From the IMG/VR virus record IMGVR_UViG_3300045988_013358, positions 1-5,579 of that record: a stretch of DNA of 5,579 nucleotides; one strand, 5' to 3'. The translations under genes were made by a program, and so were the position numbers. Under the pieces are notes generated by a model. It had not been told where the DNA came from. It was given only the letters and a program-made list of their open reading frames with translations, and did not search any database. Positions 1-5,579 of the stretch are shown one piece after another. How positions within the stretch are numbered: position 1 is the stretch's first letter; each line of letters opens with the position of its first letter. Source of the stretch: a virus.

Positions 1-89
1 ACACAATCTGCAAAAAATTGAAAGAGTACGAAAGGATTGACAAGGATGATTAAAAGCTATATCATGGACACAGACGCAAACAAAAAAAT
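1..89. repeat. Terminal direct repeat, copy 1. It is identical to 5491..5579 and marks the closure overlap of a circular 5490-nt genome.
   Basis: Base-by-base comparison shows acacaatctgcaaaaaattgaaagagtacgaaaggattgacaaggatgattaaaagctatatcatggacacagacgcaaacaaaaaaat at both ends of the window. Confidence 0.95.
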
Positions 90-438
90 AGGACAATACT
101 TTAAAGTGCGAGAATTCGCGTGCCGAGATGGTTCACAGGTAGTTTTCGTGGACGACTATCTCGTAACTATTTTAGACCTTCTAAGAAGCAAAATCAGAAA
201 ACCAGTAATCGTCACAAGCGGATACAGAACTCCAACATGGAACAAAAAATGCGAAGGAGCAAAATACAGCTATCACATGCGCGGCATGGCTGCAGACATC
301 CGAGTTGATGGGATGAGTCCAAAAGAACTCGCCAACAAACTGAATGCAATCATCCCGGAAGAATGCGGCATTATCGTATACAATGGCTGGATACACTTTG
401 ATGTGCGAGCCGGAAAAAAATACAGAAAGGGGGTGTAA
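46..438 (+). CDS. Peptidase M15 / LAS-family zinc peptidase (D-Ala-D-Ala carboxypeptidase-like, Peptidase_M15_3-like); putative endolysin.
   Basis: The ORF track gives 37..438 from TTG; I prefer ATG 46 (MIKSY...), which has GAAAGGA at 30..36. Motifs: SGYR (217..228), H-x6-D in YHMRGMAAD (His 274..276, Asp 295..297), and WIHFD (His 394..396, Asp 400..402), the typical zinc-ligand set of LAS/M15 enzymes. There is no N-terminal signal peptide or TM segment. Confidence 0.8.
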   Translation: MIKSYIMDTDANKKIGQYFKVREFACRDGSQVVFVDDYLVTILDLLRSKIRKPVIVTSGYRTPTWNKKCEGAKYSYHMRGMAADIRVDGMSPKELANKLNAIIPEECGIIVYNGWIHFDVRAGKKYRKGV

Positions 439-440
439 CA

Positions 441-557
441 ATGGCACACAGAAGCGGTGCAGGCCAAGGCGACCAGAAACGCTTTACCCAGACGGCCAAG
501 CGAGTGAAAAACATTAACGTCCGTCCGAAGGTATCGCGGGGCGGTATCCGATTGTAA
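441..557 (+). CDS. Small basic DNA-binding/packaging protein (gokushovirus VP8 / phiX174 protein J analogue), 38 aa.
   Basis: Below the 60-aa cutoff of the ORF track. ATG 441 lies 2 nt after the peptidase stop, with GGGGGTG upstream. Translation: MAHRSGAGQGDQKRFTQTAKRVKNINVRPKVSRGGIRL. The K/R-rich sequence and C-terminal RGGIRL match the tail I recall from gokushovirus ORF8-type proteins (e.g. ...IMRGGIRF). Confidence 0.7.
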   Translation: MAHRSGAGQGDQKRFTQTAKRVKNINVRPKVSRGGIRL

Positions 558-588
558 GCAATAAAAACCAAAGAAAGGAGGTGACTTA

Positions 589-705
589 ATGGCATTAATC
601 AAAGTCAAGGACGTTAAGGAAGCAATTGCGCTGATGATGAATATCCTCGAAAAGCTTGACGAAATTTACCACGCACTGAAGGATGCAAACAAAGACAAAG
701 AGTAA
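589..705 (+). CDS. Hypothetical small protein, 38 aa, predicted amphipathic helix.
   Basis: ATG 589 follows the best SD in the genome (AAAGGAGGTGA, 574..584). Translation: MALIKVKDVKEAIALMMNILEKLDEIYHALKDANKDKE; stop TAA 703..705. It fills the gap between flanking genes. I recognise no family. Confidence 0.5.
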   Translation: MALIKVKDVKEAIALMMNILEKLDEIYHALKDANKDKE

Positions 706-716
706 AGGAGAAAAAC

Positions 717-971
717 ATGAAACTGAAATTCTACTCATTCCACGATTCACTGACCAATGGCTACTCGCAGCCGTTCCTGCAGAACAACCGGGCACAGGCA
801 GTCCGAACGGCACGATGGAAGGCCAACGAAAGCAAACCGAGTGAAATCGAAGACATCAGTCTGGTAGAACTGGGCGAATTCGACACCGAAAACGGCTACA
901 TGAGCGAAGCAATGCCTGAACACATCGCACGGCTCATCGACCTGAAGGAGACGACCAATGCTAAATCCTGA
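717..971 (+). CDS. VP5: Gokushovirus VP5-like non-structural protein.
   Basis: SD AAGGAG at 705..710 and ATG at 717. The pattern F-Y-S-x-D...QPF...A-x-R...ED-x-x-L-x-ELGEFD-x-x-x-G matches the conserved layout I recall for VP5/ORF5 proteins of Gokushovirinae. Its position directly upstream of VP3 is also typical. Confidence 0.65.
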   Translation: MKLKFYSFHDSLTNGYSQPFLQNNRAQAVRTARWKANESKPSEIEDISLVELGEFDTENGYMSEAMPEHIARLIDLKETTNAKS

Positions 972-1401
972 TACACTGGTAAGGTACTATGGACTGCCGA
1001 CCGAGAGAGTGGCAAACAATCCGGGCAGCAAGACCGCGCCAACGTGGAAAGCAGTCAAGCGACCAAACGGCACAACCGACTACATCCAACAGCCCGATGA
1101 AAACACATATGAGAAAATCCAGCGCGCCGGCGAGGGATACGACCTTGCAAGCGCAATCGCACGACTGGAAGCAGGAGACACCAGTATCAAGGCAAAGAGC
1201 ATGGTATACACCGAAGGAACTGACCTTGAAAATCTGCCGAAGGATATCATGACGATGCACGAAAAGGCCGAGGCAGCAGCCGAAACAATGGAACAGCTGA
1301 AAGAACAGCTGAAACAGAAGCAGCAGACCGAACAGCCAAAGCCGGAAGAGGAAAAGGAAGAAAAAAAGGAAGAGGTGAAGGAAAACGAACCGAAACAGTG
1401 A
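958..1401 (+). CDS. VP3: Internal scaffolding protein VP3-like, with a K/E-rich low-complexity C-terminal tail.
   Basis: SD GAAGGAG at 944..950 and ATG at 958, overlapping the VP5-like gene by 14 nt. It sits directly upstream of the capsid gene. The central segment ENTYEKIQRAGEGYDLASAIARLEAGD resembles the conserved core of gokushovirus VP3 scaffolds. Confidence 0.65.
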   Translation: MLNPDTLVRYYGLPTERVANNPGSKTAPTWKAVKRPNGTTDYIQQPDENTYEKIQRAGEGYDLASAIARLEAGDTSIKAKSMVYTEGTDLENLPKDIMTMHEKAEAAAETMEQLKEQLKQKQQTEQPKPEEEKEEKKEEVKENEPKQ

Positions 1402-1426
1402 GAACCATTTCGCGCAAGTGCCGAGA

Positions 1427-3043
1427 ATGGAACGACCACGAAGCAAGTTTGACCGAAGTCACCAGCTGTTGACGACCATCAACGAAGGTGATTTGGTGCC
1501 CATCTACTGTGATGAAGTACTTCCGGGTGATACCGCGCGAGTACGGCTTAACGGGCTTATCCGTATGAGTACTCCCATCTATCCTATCATGGATAACTGC
1601 TACATGGATACCTATTTCTTCTTTGTTCCGTGCAGACTGCTCTGGGAACACTGGGAGAACATGTTCGGCGAGAACGACACCGATTATTGGGCAGAAAAGA
1701 CCGAATACAGCACGCCGTGGTGTCAAGTCGGCGGCACAAGCGGTCTAGCCAATGGCAGTATTGGAGACTACTTCGGACTGCCGACCGGAGTAAAAAAATC
1801 AATAAAAGTGAACGCGCTGCCGGCACGCGCCTACGCAATGATTTATAACGAGTGGTTCAGGGATGAAAACCTCGAAGCACCATTAATGCTCGGCTATAAA
1901 AAAAGCGATGGTGGAGGAAGCAACACAAACCCGGAAGCAACAAAGACAAGCGCCAACCACCCAAACAACACAACGGACACCAACGAAGCAAACCTCTACG
2001 CAAAAAAACCGGCAAAAGCGGGCAAGTTCCACGACTACTTCACCAGCTGCTTGCCGAAGCCGCTGAAAGCTGACCCGGTGGAAATCGGCCTGACAGGCAA
2101 TGCACCAGTAAAACTGTATAACAATGCAGAGTTAACAACTCAAACAGCAGCATCAACACAGCTAGAGTTAACTAAAAACGGCAGTATGCAGAACTTTTCA
2201 AACGTGATGGGAGTAACCGGACAAGATAAAGGCCAAATTGAAATGAAATTCATGGGCACAGACCTAAGCGGAGTGAACGCAATCAGCATTGCAGACTTGC
2301 GCATGGCAATTGCCTTGCAACACATCTTTGAGGCTGATGCACGCAACGGCACGAGATACCGTGAATTCCTGTCTGGTACGTGGGGCGTGACAAGTCCGGA
2401 CAGCCGTCTGCAGATTCCTGAATACATCGGCGGGCAGCGCATCGCAATCAATGTCAATCAGGTTGTCCAGACAAGCCAGACGGACCCGACAACCGGACAG
2501 GCACTAGGCAATACGGCAGCATACAGCCTGACCACATGCAGCAAGCAGATGGTGGACTATGCAGCAACGGAATACGGCTATATCATCGGCCTGGCAGTGG
2601 TACGAGTAGAGCACAGCTACCAGCAAGGCCTTGCGACCAAATGGACGCGCGGCGGGCGGTTCACCTACTACGACCCGCGACTGGCAGCACTGGGCGAACA
2701 GCCGGTATACAACCGCGAAATCTATGCACAAGGCACACCTGAAGACGAAGAAATCTTCGGCTATCAGGAGGCTTGGGCGGACTACCGCTACAAGCCTTCT
2801 TACGTAACCGGAGAAATGCGGTCTAACTACCAGACAAGTTTGGACGCATGGCATTATGCAGACGATTATGACAAGCTTCCGCGACTCTCGGCAGAGTGGA
2901 TTCAGGAAGGAACACAGAACATTGACCGAACAATTGCAGTGACGAGCGCAAAAAGTCATCAGTTCTTGTGTGACTTCTATTTCACAGAAGACTGGTACCG
3001 CGAGATGCCTATCTACAGCATCCCGGGCATCGAAAGAATTTAA
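1427..3043 (+). CDS. VP1: Major capsid protein VP1 (Microviridae F-protein family).
   Basis: The N-terminus RSKFDRSHQLLTTINEGDLVPIYCDEVLPGDT is the hallmark start of microvirus major capsid proteins. The length (about 540 aa) fits gokushovirus VP1. The start is ambiguous: ATG 1427 (chosen) or in-frame GTG 1418 (ORF track), and neither has a strong SD. Stop is TAA 3041..3043. Confidence 0.92.
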   Translation: MERPRSKFDRSHQLLTTINEGDLVPIYCDEVLPGDTARVRLNGLIRMSTPIYPIMDNCYMDTYFFFVPCRLLWEHWENMFGENDTDYWAEKTEYSTPWCQVGGTSGLANGSIGDYFGLPTGVKKSIKVNALPARAYAMIYNEWFRDENLEAPLMLGYKKSDGGGSNTNPEATKTSANHPNNTTDTNEANLYAKKPAKAGKFHDYFTSCLPKPLKADPVEIGLTGNAPVKLYNNAELTTQTAASTQLELTKNGSMQNFSNVMGVTGQDKGQIEMKFMGTDLSGVNAISIADLRMAIALQHIFEADARNGTRYREFLSGTWGVTSPDSRLQIPEYIGGQRIAINVNQVVQTSQTDPTTGQALGNTAAYSLTTCSKQMVDYAATEYGYIIGLAVVRVEHSYQQGLATKWTRGGRFTYYDPRLAALGEQPVYNREIYAQGTPEDEEIFGYQEAWADYRYKPSYVTGEMRSNYQTSLDAWHYADDYDKLPRLSAEWIQEGTQNIDRTIAVTSAKSHQFLCDFYFTEDWYREMPIYSIPGIERI

Positions 3044-3053
3044 GGAAGGAGGA

Positions 3054-3079
3054 AGCCCCGCAAAAGCGGGGCTATTTTT
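3054..3079 (+). terminator. Rho-independent terminator/attenuator between VP1 and VP2.
   Basis: An 8-bp GC-rich stem, AGCCCCGC (3054..3061) with GCGGGGCT (3066..3073), has an AAAA loop and is followed by ATTTTT (3074..3079). Confidence 0.8.
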
Positions 3080-3081
3080 GA

Positions 3082-3939
3082 ATGGAAACGTTATTAAAGC
3101 TTTTGCCATCCCTCATGCAAGGACTGAGCATGCTAACAGGCATCATAACAAGCAGTAACCAGAGCGGCGCCAAGAACAGCCAAGGAGCCGGCAGCGAAAG
3201 CAGCACCGGCAGCGAGACCACGACCGGCAGCGTAACAGGACCACAGCAGATAGGTGCAACACAAATCAGCACGCCAACAGGCGTAACAACGTTCGGGAAT
3301 CAGAGCAGCGTAAACACCGCAAACGCACTGCAAATGATGAGCGGACTGCTGAGCAACCTCGCGAATGCTGGAAGCCAAGCGAGCGCCAAGAAGTACAACA
3401 GCGCAGAAGCAGCAGCAGAACGAGCATTCCAAAAGGAAATGCGCGGGACAGCCTATCAGGATACCGTGAAAGACATGATTGCAGCAGGCATCAATCCTAT
3501 TCTGGCAGCGACCAACGGCGCAACAAGCGCACCATCGGGAGCATCTGCAAGCATTGGAAGCCAACATTATAACCAGCAGAGCGCACAAGCTGCAAGCGTA
3601 TCCGCAATGTACGAATACGGCAACAATACAGCAGAGCTGGCAGACAGATACTTACAGCTAGCAAAACAGGCCACCAGCGCAAAACAATTCAAGAGTGCGA
3701 AAAGCTGGGAACAGGCAGCGAGCGAGCTGGCAACCTCAAGCGCAAAACAGGCGCAACAGTACACCTATGCAGCTAGCAAGTTAGGTGCAGGCCTTGCGGG
3801 AGCTGGTAAAGCAGCCAAAGACGCAGTAAAAGAGGCTGGTAAAGCAGCCAAAGACACAGCAGGAAACTTCAAAAAGTACAACCAAAGAGTGCCAATCATG
3901 CCAAACATGGACACATTCAACGCATACAGAGGAGACTAA
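3082..3939 (+). CDS. VP2: Minor capsid / DNA pilot protein VP2.
   Basis: It lies downstream of VP1. It has a Gly/Ser/Thr/Ala/Gln-rich low-complexity composition. The motif AERAFQKEMRGTAYQDTVKDMIAAGINPILA matches the conserved motif of gokushovirus VP2 (...TAYQR...DM..AGLNP.LA). Confidence 0.85.
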   Translation: METLLKLLPSLMQGLSMLTGIITSSNQSGAKNSQGAGSESSTGSETTTGSVTGPQQIGATQISTPTGVTTFGNQSSVNTANALQMMSGLLSNLANAGSQASAKKYNSAEAAAERAFQKEMRGTAYQDTVKDMIAAGINPILAATNGATSAPSGASASIGSQHYNQQSAQAASVSAMYEYGNNTAELADRYLQLAKQATSAKQFKSAKSWEQAASELATSSAKQAQQYTYAASKLGAGLAGAGKAAKDAVKEAGKAAKDTAGNFKKYNQRVPIMPNMDTFNAYRGD

Positions 3940-3945
3940 GAAAGG

Positions 3946-3975
3946 AAGGGGGATGGTAAAACATCCCCCTTTTTT
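3946..3975 (+). terminator. Strong rho-independent terminator ending the structural operon.
   Basis: A 10-bp stem, AAGGGGGATG (3946..3955) with CATCCCCCTT (3962..3971), has a GTAAAA loop. A T6 run occupies 3970..3975, 7 nt after the VP2 stop. Confidence 0.9.
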
Positions 3976-4002
3976 AGTAACAATAATCCAAAAAATAGAG
4001 AT

Positions 4003-4026
4003 TGTGGAAAACTTGAGTTTTCAACA
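4003..4026 (+). promoter_or_regulatory. Hairpin whose stem contains a consensus DnaA box (TTTTCCACA on the - strand); candidate single-strand initiation / complementary-strand origin element.
   Basis: TGTGGAAAAC (4003..4012) and GTTTTCAACA (4017..4026) form a 10-bp inverted repeat with one G/A mismatch and a TTGA loop. The reverse complement of 4003..4011 is TTTTCCACA, which fits the DnaA box TTWTNCACA. The function is inferred, not demonstrated. Confidence 0.4.
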
Positions 4027-4191
4027 CTTTCAACAGGTTTTCAACAACAAGTTGCACAAAGAAATTCGTCATAATGACGAACATTCAACAATTCAACAAG
4101 TTTTCAACAAAGTTTTCAACAGGCAAAAAGACAATAAATAAACGTAGAAACGTTAAAAAAATAAAAAAACGAGTTTTCAACAGTTTCAACA
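4017..4191 (+). repeat. Array of nine same-orientation TTCAACA repeats (five extended to GTTTTCAACA) in three clusters; iteron-like protein-binding sites.
   Basis: TTCAACA starts at 4020, 4029, 4040 | 4084, 4092, 4103, 4115 | 4176, 4185. Full GTTTTCAACA copies are at 4017, 4037, 4100, 4112 and 4173. Spacings of 8-12 nt are not multiples of 3, which argues for a DNA-level rather than a coding repeat. Confidence 0.85.
4065..4081. repeat. Perfect palindrome TTCGTCAT-A-ATGACGAA between repeat clusters 1 and 2.
   Basis: The 8-nt arms at 4065..4072 and 4074..4081 are exact reverse complements. Each arm contains TGACGAA (TGNCGAA) read outward on its strand. Confidence 0.8.
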
Positions 4192-4210
4192 CTACTACTA
4201 CTACTACTAC
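4191..4210. repeat. Trinucleotide microsatellite (ACT)6 plus AC in non-coding DNA.
   Basis: Positions 4191..4210 read actactactactactactac, directly abutting the ninth TTCAACA copy. Confidence 0.9.
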
Positions 4211-4243
4211 AACAAGTTAATATAAAAAGAAAGCGAGGTGTCA

Positions 4244-4278
4244 ACCGGCACAAGATAGACAAGGAAGCTTGTGCCGGT
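4244..4278 (+). promoter_or_regulatory. Perfect 11-bp stem-loop overlapping the rep translation-initiation region; translational control element and/or origin hairpin.
   Basis: ACCGGCACAAG (4244..4254) pairs with CTTGTGCCGGT (4268..4278). The 13-nt loop ATAGACAAGGAAG contains the only SD-like sequence for rep (AAGGAAG, 4261..4267). Candidate GTG start 4271 lies in the 3' arm, and ATG 4286 is 7 nt downstream of the stem. Confidence 0.6.
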
Positions 4279-4285
4279 AACAAAA

Positions 4286-5275
4286 ATGCCATGTACAAAA
4301 CCATTAGTATTTCAGATGGACACGAAAAAACCACAACTGTGGGGAAGTCTGGAGAACCTATCAAAGCAAGGACTGCAAGCGGACATCATGGACGGAATAA
4401 AAAAAGGAAAGTTCGCGTTGTTACCATGCGGTAAGTGCGAGTACTGCCGAAAACAGATGGCTGACCAATGGGCAACCAGAATAGAGCTAGAAGCCAAAGA
4501 GTGGGACGATGTGATTTTTCTGACACTAACTTATGATGATGAGCACATACCTTATGGTGAAATCGTCAAAGGATACCAAAGCATCCAAAGCCAGACGGTA
4601 AGCAAACGAGACGTGCAGCTATTTCTGAAACGGCTACGAAAAGCATACAAAAAACCGATAAAGTATTTCCTAGCAGCTGAATATGGTGACAGAACAAAAA
4701 GACCACACTATCACGCAATAGTGTTCGGACTGAAACCACCAGATGCACAATGGTATAAAAACCAAAAAGGCAACAGCTATTTCAAAAGCGAGTGGCTGCA
4801 AAAAATCTGGGGCAAAGGCATGATAGACTTTTCACCAGCACAGCCAGGCAGCTTTGCATACGTAGCGCAATACGTCAACAAAAAAGCCATAGGCGCAGAG
4901 CAAGCGGCAAAATACTGGATGGAAGGCAGAGAACCTGAATTTAGAATCATGTCGAAAGGTATCGGAGAAAAGTATCTAAACGAACACAAAGATGAAATCT
5001 TAAAAACAGATAACATCATATGCGCAGGAGGACGCGAGAAAAGGCCTCCACGCTATTTTGATAAGATTCTAGATAAGGATACCAACAAAGACACAGAAAG
5101 CTATTTTAGGGCACATTCTGACGAGCTGAGAGAGGTAAGAGCCAGACGCAGACGCAGTGCAGTACAAAGTTTGGTCAATCTCGAACAAAGCACGAGCGTA
5201 GATTATGAAACCTATCTAAACATTCAGAAAGAAAAGGACAAGCTAAAGCAAAAGTGGCGTGAACCGAAAACATGA
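4286..5275 (+). CDS. VP4: Replication initiation protein VP4 (HUH rolling-circle endonuclease, phiX174 protein A family).
   Basis: RCR motif 1 is FLTLTY (4517..4534). Motif 2 is HYH in PHYHAIVFG (4706..4714). Motif 3 is YVAQYVNKK with two catalytic Tyr (4859..4861 and 4871..4873), almost identical to phiX174 A YVAKYVNKK. There is a Cys-rich PCGKCEYCR element. ATG 4286 gives MPCTKPL..., matching the M-x-C-x-x-P N-terminus I recall for gokushovirus Reps. GTG 4271 (ORF track) is an in-frame alternative with better SD spacing. Confidence 0.9.
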   Translation: MPCTKPLVFQMDTKKPQLWGSLENLSKQGLQADIMDGIKKGKFALLPCGKCEYCRKQMADQWATRIELEAKEWDDVIFLTLTYDDEHIPYGEIVKGYQSIQSQTVSKRDVQLFLKRLRKAYKKPIKYFLAAEYGDRTKRPHYHAIVFGLKPPDAQWYKNQKGNSYFKSEWLQKIWGKGMIDFSPAQPGSFAYVAQYVNKKAIGAEQAAKYWMEGREPEFRIMSKGIGEKYLNEHKDEILKTDNIICAGGREKRPPRYFDKILDKDTNKDTESYFRAHSDELREVRARRRRSAVQSLVNLEQSTSVDYETYLNIQKEKDKLKQKWREPKT

Positions 5276-5410
5276 CGCGCACAGCGCTAAAAAGGAAGAT
5301 TTTATTAAGCCGAGTTCCGCCTTAGCTCCACACGGCAGAGCGCTAAAGCGCCTTTCAAAACAAAGGAGCAAGAAAAAGGGTTACAAAATTATTACAAAGT
5401 GCAAAAAACA

Positions 5411-5439
5411 TTAAAAAACATATTGACATCTGATAAAAT
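5411..5439 (+). promoter_or_regulatory. Candidate sigma70/SigA-type promoter with an extended -10, driving the peptidase-to-VP2 operon.
   Basis: TTAAAA (5411..5416, 4/6 match to TTGACA), a 17-nt spacer, then TGaTAAAAT (TG at 5431..5432, -10 TAAAAT at 5434..5439). Phased A-tracts (AAAAAACAT twice, at 5403 and 5413) overlap or precede it. It lies about 30 nt upstream of the first SD of the operon. Confidence 0.45.
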
Positions 5440-5463
5440 TAAATCAGAAAAAGAAAGAGAGGT

Positions 5464-5487
5464 GAACACCATGGAGAACACCATGGA
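5464..5487 (+). repeat. Perfect 12-bp tandem duplication GAACACCATGGA x2.
   Basis: Positions 5464..5475 equal 5476..5487. The duplication creates two in-frame ATGs (5471 and 5483). Confidence 0.9.
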
Positions 5488-5530
5488 CAAACACAATCTG
5501 CAAAAAATTGAAAGAGTACGAAAGGATTGA
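5471..5530 (+). CDS. Possible 19-aa upstream/leader ORF spanning the circular junction (equivalent to 5471..5490 plus 1..40).
   Basis: SD GAGAGGTGA at 5457..5465 and ATG at 5471. Translation: MENTMDKHNLQKIERVRKD. Stop TGA 5528..5530 (38..40 in copy 1) lies 5 nt before the peptidase ATG and overlaps its SD region. It is too short to call coding from sequence alone. Confidence 0.3.
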   Translation: MENTMDKHNLQKIERVRKD

Positions 5531-5535
5531 CAAGG

Positions 5536-5579
5536 ATGATTAAAAGCTATATCATGGACACAGACGCAAACAAAAAAAT
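5536..5579 (+). CDS. Duplicate 5' end of the peptidase gene, truncated by the window edge. This is an artefact of the terminal redundancy, not a second gene.
   Basis: Positions 5536..5579 are identical to 46..89. Confidence 0.85.
   Translation, partial: MIKSYIMDTDANKK

Follow-up and report, generated by a model that had tools for sequence, protein, structure and literature searches.

The stretch of DNA analysed here (the window, 5,579 nt; positions 1 to 5,579 of IMG/VR record IMGVR_UViG_3300045988_013358) is the complete circular genome of a gokushovirus (Microviridae) from the human gut, with positions 1-89 repeated at 5491-5579 and all genes on the plus strand. Its closest GenBank records are the human-gut gokushoviruses KX513876 (88% identity) and MT121961 (86%). 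Between the terminator that follows the VP2 gene (3946-3976) and VP4, which codes for a Rep protein of the HUH type, lies a 330-nt non-coding gap. This gap holds the subject of the present study, a non-coding cassette of about 230 nt (4003-4235, hereafter the module) made of ten 9-mers of the DnaA-box type TTTTC[A/C]ACA (4003-4191), nine of them on one strand, followed by a (CTA)6 run and then by an AT-rich stretch. The genes and features of the window are the following.

37-438, plus strand: M15 peptidase
717-971, plus strand: VP5
958-1401, plus strand: scaffold protein
1418-3043, plus strand: major capsid protein VP1
3082-3939, plus strand: VP2
3946-3976, plus strand: Rho-independent terminator after VP2 (10-bp G+C-rich stem 3946-3955/3962-3971, then a T run)
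4003-4011, minus strand: inverted DnaA box TTTTCCACA, the only reverse-oriented box of the module
4018-4046, plus strand: box cluster 1 (TTTTCAACA 4018-4026, CTTTCAACA 4027-4035, TTTTCAACA 4038-4046)
4065-4081, no strand assigned: 8-bp palindrome TTCGTCAT-A-ATGACGAA between clusters 1 and 2, partly conserved
4082-4121, plus strand: box cluster 2 (CATTCAACA 4082-4090, AATTCAACA 4090-4098, TTTTCAACA 4101-4109, TTTTCAACA 4113-4121)
4141-4154, no strand assigned: small hairpin (AACGT-AGAA-ACGTT) within the spacer that precedes the tandem boxes
4174-4191, plus strand: tandem DnaA boxes TTTTCAACA-GTTTCAACA, oriented toward the trios
4192-4209, minus strand: six perfect DnaA-trios (top-strand (CTA)6 equals bottom-strand 3'-GAT-5' six times), with a 0-nt spacer to the proximal box
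4210-4235, no strand assigned: AT-rich stretch, candidate DNA unwinding element (73% A+T, against 52.8% for the genome)
4244-4278, plus strand: perfect 11-bp hairpin, arms ACCGGCACAAG/CTTGTGCCGGT, 13-nt loop ATAGACAAGGAAG
4286-5275, plus strand: HUH Rep VP4, with an alternative start GTG at 4271

The repeats constitute a family, and it is this family, not any single box, that lies far beyond chance. At no more than one mismatch, TTTTCAACA occurs eight times in 4003-4191 and nine times in the window against 1.9 expected, a count that none of 200 shuffles reached, and TTCAACA occurs nine times against 1.0 expected, always on the plus strand and always between 4020 and 4191. Two copies of the ATTCAACA type bring the box-like 9-mers to ten, arranged in three clusters. 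An open reading frame for a basic product of 48 amino acids (4074-4220, MTNIQQFNKFSTKFS...TTTTTTTTS) extends over repeats and CTA run alike; since a stop breaks this frame in genome L004 and its ATG is missing in L005, it is a repeat artefact and not a gene.

The first-pass annotation had singled out positions 4003-4026, which on the packaged plus strand can fold into a hairpin presenting a double-stranded consensus DnaA box and which might thereby act as an A-site, assembling the DnaA-DnaB-DnaC (ABC) primosome for complementary-strand synthesis. The A-site of R6K and pBR322, associated with the names of Masai and Arai, is reportedly a DnaA box carried in the stem of a single-stranded DNA (ssDNA) hairpin that recruits this primosome. 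Hairpin and box do exist in the window: positions 4003-4012 (TGTGGAAAAC) and 4017-4026 (GTTTTCAACA) pair around the loop TTGA (4013-4016) through nine Watson-Crick pairs and one G/A mismatch, and the minus strand at 4003-4011 reads TTTTCCACA, the sole match in the window to the relaxed consensus TTWTNCACA. The mismatch, however, falls at position 6 of the box, a critical one, so that the stem does not restore a fully paired consensus box. Neither the hairpin alone nor the single box alone exceeds chance. As ssDNA the hairpin has a folding energy of -4.7 kcal/mol (z = -1.31), equalled in 25 of 200 shuffles, and one consensus box is seen where 0.47 is expected per window, at least one appearing in 80 of 200 shuffles. 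Nor is this hairpin the preferred fold: in the fold of 3990-4240, the partner of the inverted copy is the distal direct copy at 4097-4110 (13 of 14 bases) and not its neighbour. That larger fold is itself weak (z = -1.73, with 9 of 200 shuffles folding equally well), and a strongly structured ssDNA origin at 3990-4240 was accordingly rejected. What yields the hairpin is the head-to-head placement of boxes 4003-4011 and 4018-4026. Since the oriC of an Oscillospiraceae genome from the Hadza gut (L130) holds TGTGGAAAACTTG, the same string as the reversed box of the window, a pair of oppositely oriented boxes is an ordinary origin feature; the hairpin is a by-product of such a pair, and both box orientations occur in bacterial origins too.

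The cassette as a whole has every sequence feature of an origin-unwinding unit of the dnaA-dnaN type. In the basal unwinding system (BUS) of bacterial chromosomes, DnaA boxes in tandem are separated by 0-16 nt, often including a 4-nt GC cluster, from at least three DnaA-trios with AT-rich DNA beyond them, the trios lying on the strand opposite to that on which the boxes read TTATCCACA (PMC8287927). Written 3' to 5', the origins in Table S1 of that study read AATAGGTGT-TTAGGTGT-CCGG-GATGATAATGAAGATGAT in Bacillus subtilis, AAAAGGTGT-CAAAGGTGT-CCGG-GATGATGATGATGATGAT in Deinococcus geothermalis and AATAATTGT-ATAGTTGT-TCGG-GATGATGATGATGATGATAAA in Clostridium botulinum (PMC8287927). Positions 4174-4209 of the window, written in the same direction, read AAAAGTTGT-C-AAAGTTGT-GATGATGATGATGATGAT and match these origins in both order and polarity; AAAAGTTGT, equivalent to TTTTCAACA, is itself listed in the same table as a species-specific box from DoriC. 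The box TTTTCAACA stands two mismatches from TTATCCACA and equals the boxes clustered around dnaA in L130 and in L180, an Oscillospiraceae locus from roe-deer rumen. Between the paired boxes (4174-4182 and 4183-4191) and the trios the spacer is 0 nt, and of 110 phage modules 104 have a spacer of 0-5 nt, inside the 16-nt limit. Where three NAN triplets, preferably 3'-GAT-5', are the minimum, the window has six GAT trios at 4192-4209 and its relatives have 7-8 NAN triplets, and the AT-rich DNA follows at 4210-4235. The trio of Clostridioides difficile has been reported as top-strand CACCTACTACTATTACTACTA, and the DnaD recognition element of Firmicutes, rich in TnnT, is formed by the strand opposite the trios; the top strand of 4192-4209 is also a run of TnnT. 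A departure concerns location. Chromosomal systems of this kind lie by dnaA and dnaN, and the module is found in a microvirus, between its VP2 and VP4 genes, for which reason we describe it as oriC-like and not as a chromosomal oriC.

The correspondence also holds in the reciprocal direction. A pattern derived from the 3' part of the phage module (top strand, TTWTCAAC-N1-3-WTCNACA-N0-6-CTACTACTA) was scanned against one genome per species in 185,579 species and matched at least 120 bacterial species. Among the matches listed, most belong to Clostridia and Negativicutes, the genera and families being mostly Clostridium, Oscillospiraceae, Lachnospiraceae, Ruminococcus, Selenomonas and Sporomusa. 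The flanks of these matches were checked with the DnaA and DnaN proteins of L180, both confirmed with Pfam. At 75 of the 120 listed loci the match has dnaA as its immediate upstream and dnaN as its immediate downstream neighbour, both on the same strand; at 30 others one of the two genes adjoins and the other flank falls beyond the examined DNA, and 7 more have only one. One or both genes hence adjoin the match at 112 of the 120 listed loci, of which at least these are chromosomal, and given these flanks the phage motif combination can be considered diagnostic of chromosomal oriC.

When 110 phage modules were combined into a profile, almost the entire profile matched bacterial origins, namely those of L211, a Clostridia metagenome-assembled genome (MAG) (E = 4e-15), L130 (E = 4.5e-13) and L180 (E = 3e-10), and the joint alignment of phage modules and oriCs is collinear, cluster for cluster. 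The oriCs of L211, L130 and L180 share 58.0, 57.3 and 50.0% identity with the window and 58.3, 59.5 and 51.2% with the module of L005. Overall, identities between phage and oriC range from 50 to 59.5%, against 58-65% between oriCs, so the phage module is about as similar to Oscillospiraceae origins as these are to one another. L130 and L180 have clusters of TTTTCAACA and TTTTCCACA around dnaA, with no TTATCCACA within 8 kb, and both contain a tandem pair identical to that at 4174-4191. The ACG...CGT pairing of the small hairpin at 4141-4154 is kept in relatives, and a similar ACGCAGTTACGT stands at the same place in the oriC of L130. As a separate observation, positions 2500-2800 of L137, a Mesoaciditoga MAG (Thermotogota), contain a very phage-like array with seven forward TTTTCAACA boxes, tandem boxes and CTACTACTACTA; neither dnaA nor dnaN occurs within 2 kb, and the array may belong to a mobile element or be an origin placed outside the canonical locus.

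Among gokushoviruses, the module is widespread. The 17-mer TTCAACAATTCAACAAG, part of cluster 2, was found in at least 120 IMG/VR contigs; among the matches listed, 107 are gokushovirus genomes or fragments, including L090, which has no VP1 match and is a genuine module-bearing fragment. Thirteen large contigs with this 17-mer were discarded as chance matches, the motif occurring there only as the two copies inside the pattern, in unrelated coding sequence. Altogether, more than 110 gokushovirus contigs of IMG/VR contain the module. GenBank holds 33 module-bearing records, all Microviridae/Gokushovirinae, from the gut of human, pig, mink, raccoon, monkey, dog and turkey; 29 of them have no annotated feature under the match, and the remaining four have a protein-type annotation there. 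One record, NC_015785 (Microviridae phi-CA82, turkey), retains at 3773-3815 only the core of tandem boxes and trios (window 4167-4210, 93% identity). This core lies under an open reading frame annotated as 'p4 putative non-structural protein', which is either a spurious annotation or a case of the core lying within coding sequence. No match to the module was found among the plasmids of PLSDB. Some ten larger viral contigs of IMG/VR (L246, L257 and L270, of 95-160 kb, and L255, L264, L267, L268, L269, L274 and L275) carry arrays of canonical TTATCCACA boxes in which tandem boxes occur together with the spacer CCCC, with CTACTACTAC and with AT-rich DNA, and neither dnaA nor dnaN lies in the stretch examined; it may thus be that other phages, or phage-plasmids, also possess unwinding units resembling an origin.

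The borders of the module are sharp. Its tandem boxes, its trios and ACAACAAGT are columns conserved at 95% or more among the 110 phage modules; conservation is at least 80-95% along cluster 1, and cluster 2 is the most conserved stretch. The modules have a median of seven strict boxes, 7-8 NAN triplets and a spacer of 0-5 nt. The sequence beyond the trios reads ACAACAAGTTAATATAAAAAGAAAG, and the AT-rich stretch opens with ACAACAAGTTAAT, which is highly conserved and specific to the phages. This persistence extends over considerable divergence. We distinguished a group A of 39 genomes, whose VP1 is at least 70% identical to that of the window, from a group B of 73 genomes with VP1 only 37-49% identical, and between the two groups VP4 (frame 4286-5275) is 41% identical (E = 1e-62). 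Given the sharp borders, and with trios and tandem boxes best kept despite such differences in VP1 and VP4, the cassette is under selection in many divergent phages.

The pattern of conservation bears on what is being selected. Ten boxes on a high-copy replicative form (RF) might never fire and simply soak up host DnaA, as datA or the inc clusters of Bacillus subtilis do when placed on plasmids, which would block initiation on the host chromosome or alter DnaA-controlled transcription to the benefit of the phage. Such a decoy would draw on the same evidence for DnaA binding as an origin, and the independence of orientation and position described below fits a pure array of binding sites. Its precedent is the incompatibility caused by incA, incB and incC when cloned on plasmids, for which, following Moriya's work of 1988, these regions are said to have been named. 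For titration, on the other hand, duplex boxes would be enough, and yet conservation among divergent phages is highest in the six trios, in the 0-5 nt that separate them from the tandem pair and in the AT-rich stretch, which suggests selection on an unwinding function. We consider a decoy, the main rival explanation, unlikely.

The position and orientation of the module vary in a manner that narrows the alternatives further. Throughout group A (39 of 39) it lies upstream of VP4 and on the gene strand; throughout group B (73 of 73) it lies downstream of VP4, and in 69 of these genomes it is inverted relative to the genes. Three of the non-inverted group-B genomes (L057, L085 and L008) are about 80-86% identical, by aggregated megablast, to their nearest inverted-module genomes. 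The fourth, L004, is about 75-77% identical to its nearest inverted-module genomes, and its second-closest relative, L057, is itself non-inverted; L004 and L005 have the same flanks around oppositely oriented modules. Since opposite orientations occur among close relatives, the cassette acts as a discrete unit able to invert, has flipped repeatedly and is neutral in its orientation, which fits a bidirectional function on duplex DNA. On its trio and AT-rich side, the module is bordered in group B and in the L003 clade by tracts of 20-50 nt in which purines and pyrimidines alternate, (CGCG/TGCG)n (L005, 2290-2345; L004, 1120-1175; L003, 2975-3020). These tracts are Z-DNA-prone and self-complementary, and recombination between them could be the cause of the repeated inversion.

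Another explanation takes the module for a promoter or operator for VP4 that DnaA would regulate and that came along with the region upstream of dnaN, or for host DNA carried as a neutral passenger. The former would account for the group-A arrangement, in which the module lies directly upstream of VP4, after a terminator, and is oriented as oriC is upstream of dnaN. Nevertheless, a search of 3977-4243 for a sigma-70-like promoter found none, and in the 73 group-B genomes the module is downstream of VP4, pointing in 69 of them into its 3' end. A passenger, for its part, would not keep sharp borders and columns conserved at 95% or more across phages with 40% identical capsid proteins. Both versions thus strike us as very improbable.

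The proximity of a Rep gene invites another explanation, in which the gap is the rolling-circle double-strand origin, its repeats are iterons of the VP4 Rep and the nick falls in the TACTAC(G/T)AC run or in ACAACAAGTTAAT, with DnaA perhaps aiding in melting. Direct repeats and a conserved sequence beside a Rep gene are what such an origin would look like, and many relatives read CTACTACTACGACTAC; the TACTAC(G/T)AC run resembles the nick sequence of pMV158 and pE194, TACTACG/AC. ACAACAAGTTAAT, conserved and phage-specific, could be a Rep site, and HUH nucleases need a single-stranded substrate, which DnaA-driven melting might supply. Against this, the same boxes and CTA runs occur in chromosomal oriCs of bacteria, and the supposed iterons do not co-vary with Rep, the repeats being the same where the Reps are only 41% identical. 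A nick within the module would moreover make the packaged strand and the direction of the fork flip between genomes that are 80-85% identical. In an origin of the pMV158 type the nick would be expected on the strand that is displaced and packaged, and hence in a fixed orientation; the module flips relative to the genes, and the packaged strand of these uncultured phages may follow either the genes or the module. A rolling-circle origin at this place is, on balance, improbable.

The A-site model is affected in the same way, since a signal read on one strand of ssDNA should not tolerate inversion relative to the genes. The inverted box, moreover, is a local feature. It is present in 29 of the 40 closest (group-A) genomes, to which L049 adds a variant, TGTAGAAAAC, that destroys the box, and it is absent from 83 of 113 module-bearing genomes, comprising 10 of group A, among them the L003-like sister subclade, and all 73 of group B, which retain the rest of the module. 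Comparison with relatives, which the first-pass annotation had suggested as a check for compensatory changes, showed the hairpin to be invariant in the 29 close relatives that have it and confined to the window's own subclade; the only two variants, L121, in which the closing C-G pair is lost, and L049, both weaken it, and none is compensated. The likely hosts speak against the model too: in Clostridia the helicase is loaded by DnaD/DnaB/DnaI, and not by the DnaC system of Escherichia coli, the defining part of the ABC primosome. If these phages have a strand-specific signal, the non-coding element 5276-5371, right after the VP4 stop, is a better candidate for it. This element occurs in 29 group-A and 20 group-B genomes and keeps the gene strand in 49 of 49, genomes with inverted modules included. 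Its consensus hairpin (5309-5312/5333-5336 with 5314-5315/5330-5331) shows real compensatory pairs, G-C in 16 and A-U in 14 sequences at one place and U-A in 19 and C-G in 11 at another; GCGC hairpins also lie at 5277-5287 and 5339-5352. We regard the element as a candidate strand-specific origin, terminator or RNA element. For the A-site itself, what speaks in favour is that hairpin and box exist, that they are invariant where present and that DnaA is very likely the protein reading this region; we nevertheless give the model next to no credence. The idea of a DnaA-dependent complementary-strand origin is thus supported in its link with DnaA, now based on an array of boxes and trios collinear with dnaA-dnaN origins of Clostridia, and not supported in its mechanism of an ssDNA hairpin.

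Two hairpins flank the module without belonging to it. The terminator after VP2, kept in L001 and L002, forms the left border of the non-coding region. On the right, outside the conserved cassette, the hairpin at 4244-4278 overlaps the ribosome-binding site of VP4 and the GTG at 4271; the L003 clade keeps it with changed stem bases (CTGGCGCAAG...CTTGCGCCA), and it could serve in the control of Rep translation or as a nick hairpin for Rep. A search of Rfam at E <= 1 returned only three sub-threshold chance matches, within 3933-4024, and no known RNA family.

Taken together, this evidence makes it very likely that the module is a captured DnaA-binding element of the oriC type in which the hairpin is incidental. 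Gut Clostridia of the Oscillospiraceae/Ruminococcaceae kind are the most likely source of the capture. We further consider it probable that 4003-4235 is a copy of a bacterial oriC of the dnaA-dnaN intergenic type (oriC2/incC) that acts as a DnaA-dependent site of unwinding and helicase loading on the double-stranded RF. From the arrangement of its parts we infer how DnaA binding, unwinding, helicase loading and a benefit to the phage would follow. The ten TTTTC[A/C]ACA boxes would be bound by host DnaA-ATP on the duplex RF and not on packaged ssDNA; from the tandem pair at 4174-4191 a DnaA filament would be nucleated onto the six bottom-strand 3'-GAT-5' trios (4192-4209); the adjacent AT-rich stretch at 4210-4235 would melt; and host helicase loaders, which in Firmicutes are DnaD/DnaB/DnaI, would enter. 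The outcome could be either a start of RF replication that depends on the host initiator or an opened duplex offering ssDNA to the phage Rep, VP4. More tentatively, gokushoviruses may have captured a complete Clostridial origin-unwinding unit and also fire it, which would place a DnaA-dependent origin of the theta or helicase-loading type in a rolling-circle phage. A hybrid version is conceivable as well, in which DnaA would melt the trios and the HUH Rep would then nick in the adjacent conserved ACAACAAGTTAAT.

Several considerations weigh against such a function. The DnaA of Escherichia coli needs a C at box position 6, where the module has an A, so that binding would depend on the DnaA of the predicted host. 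We know of no microvirus that needs DnaA, and rolling-circle phages already carry a Rep, here VP4; the selective benefit to the phage is unexplained. Titration of DnaA would by itself also select for box clusters, and the similarity between arrays built of the same short repeats could be in part convergent and not inherited. The conserved ACAACAAGTTAAT has no counterpart in bacterial origins and is unaccounted for. Finally, oriC2 of Clostridioides difficile alone was not unwound in vitro without oriC1, and a lone module of the oriC2 type may for this reason not suffice by itself.

In the human gut, Microviridae rank with the most abundant phages; to our knowledge, almost none of those from gut Firmicutes have been cultured. 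DnaA boxes in theta origins of plasmids and phages, and the BUS in chromosomes, are already known. In the literature that we searched, no paper connected Microviridae with DnaA or with oriC, or a phage element with DnaA-trios, and searches for gokushovirus origins and for oriC-like phage elements returned nothing relevant; nor did we find in it a full unit of the chromosomal type inside an ssDNA rolling-circle phage. If our interpretation is correct, the module would be the first replication element of Microviridae reported to depend on DnaA, and a chromosomal origin would prove mobilisable as a discrete invertible cassette. The sequence also yields a host prediction, namely Clostridia with TTTTC[A/C]ACA boxes in their oriC, with the best match in Oscillospiraceae, and 4174-4235 offers a compact natural substrate of 60 bp for studying the BUS outside the chromosome. 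Should the unit be fired, RF replication would be tied to the host initiator, plasmid-like carriage without integration would be possible, and Oscillospiraceae-type Clostridia would be named as hosts of a large clade of uncultured human-gut microviruses. Should it act as a decoy instead, it would represent a new phage route to shutting down host replication.

The module can be set beside several known systems that call on host replication proteins. The complementary-strand origins of Microviridae, such as the PriA-dependent n'/pas site of phiX174 and the primase origin of G4, are likewise non-coding intergenic signals of this kind; they are strongly folded, strand-specific ssDNA signals, whereas the region in the window folds weakly (z = -1.7) and flips. 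Compared with the phiX174 origin, the 3' end of the module has only the hexamer AACTTG in common, on the reverse strand and not collinear. What the A-site of R6K/pBR322 has in common with the window is a DnaA-box sequence that one of the strands can place in the stem of a hairpin; the box of the window, however, contains a mismatch, its hairpin is weak, restricted to one subclade, not covarying and not constant in strand, and the A-site has no counterpart to the nine direct boxes and the trios. Theta origins of plasmids and phages with DnaA boxes (P1 oriR, F, pSC101, RK2 and R6K) resemble the module in that a mobile replicon recruits host DnaA through boxes of its own. Their boxes, 1-5 in number, support an initiator that is encoded by the plasmid and binds iterons, whereas the module is a whole unwinding unit in a phage whose sole initiator is an HUH nickase. 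With datA of Escherichia coli and the inc clusters of Bacillus subtilis it has in common that DnaA boxes are densely grouped away from the origin, where they could sequester DnaA; these titration sites are without the unit of tandem boxes, trios and AT-rich DNA that is the best-conserved part of the module.

The closest known system is the BUS itself, as described for boxes #6 and #7 and the trios of incC in Bacillus subtilis and for oriC2 of Clostridium and Clostridioides difficile (Richardson 2016/2019; Pelliciari 2021, PMC8287927; PMC7561715). Unlike it, the module resides in a 5.5-kb ssDNA rolling-circle phage and not between dnaA and dnaN, has no GC cluster in the window (0-nt spacer, 1-5 nt in relatives), has the phage-specific ACAACAAGTTAAT after the trios and is found in both orientations, before the Rep gene in some genomes and after it in others. 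The two have in common tandem boxes in the TTATCCACA orientation, at least six trios within 0-5 nt of them and AT-rich DNA thereafter, as well as upstream clusters of boxes of which some are reversed, and in this arrangement the tandem pair at 4174-4191 is the equivalent of boxes #6 and #7 of Bacillus subtilis.

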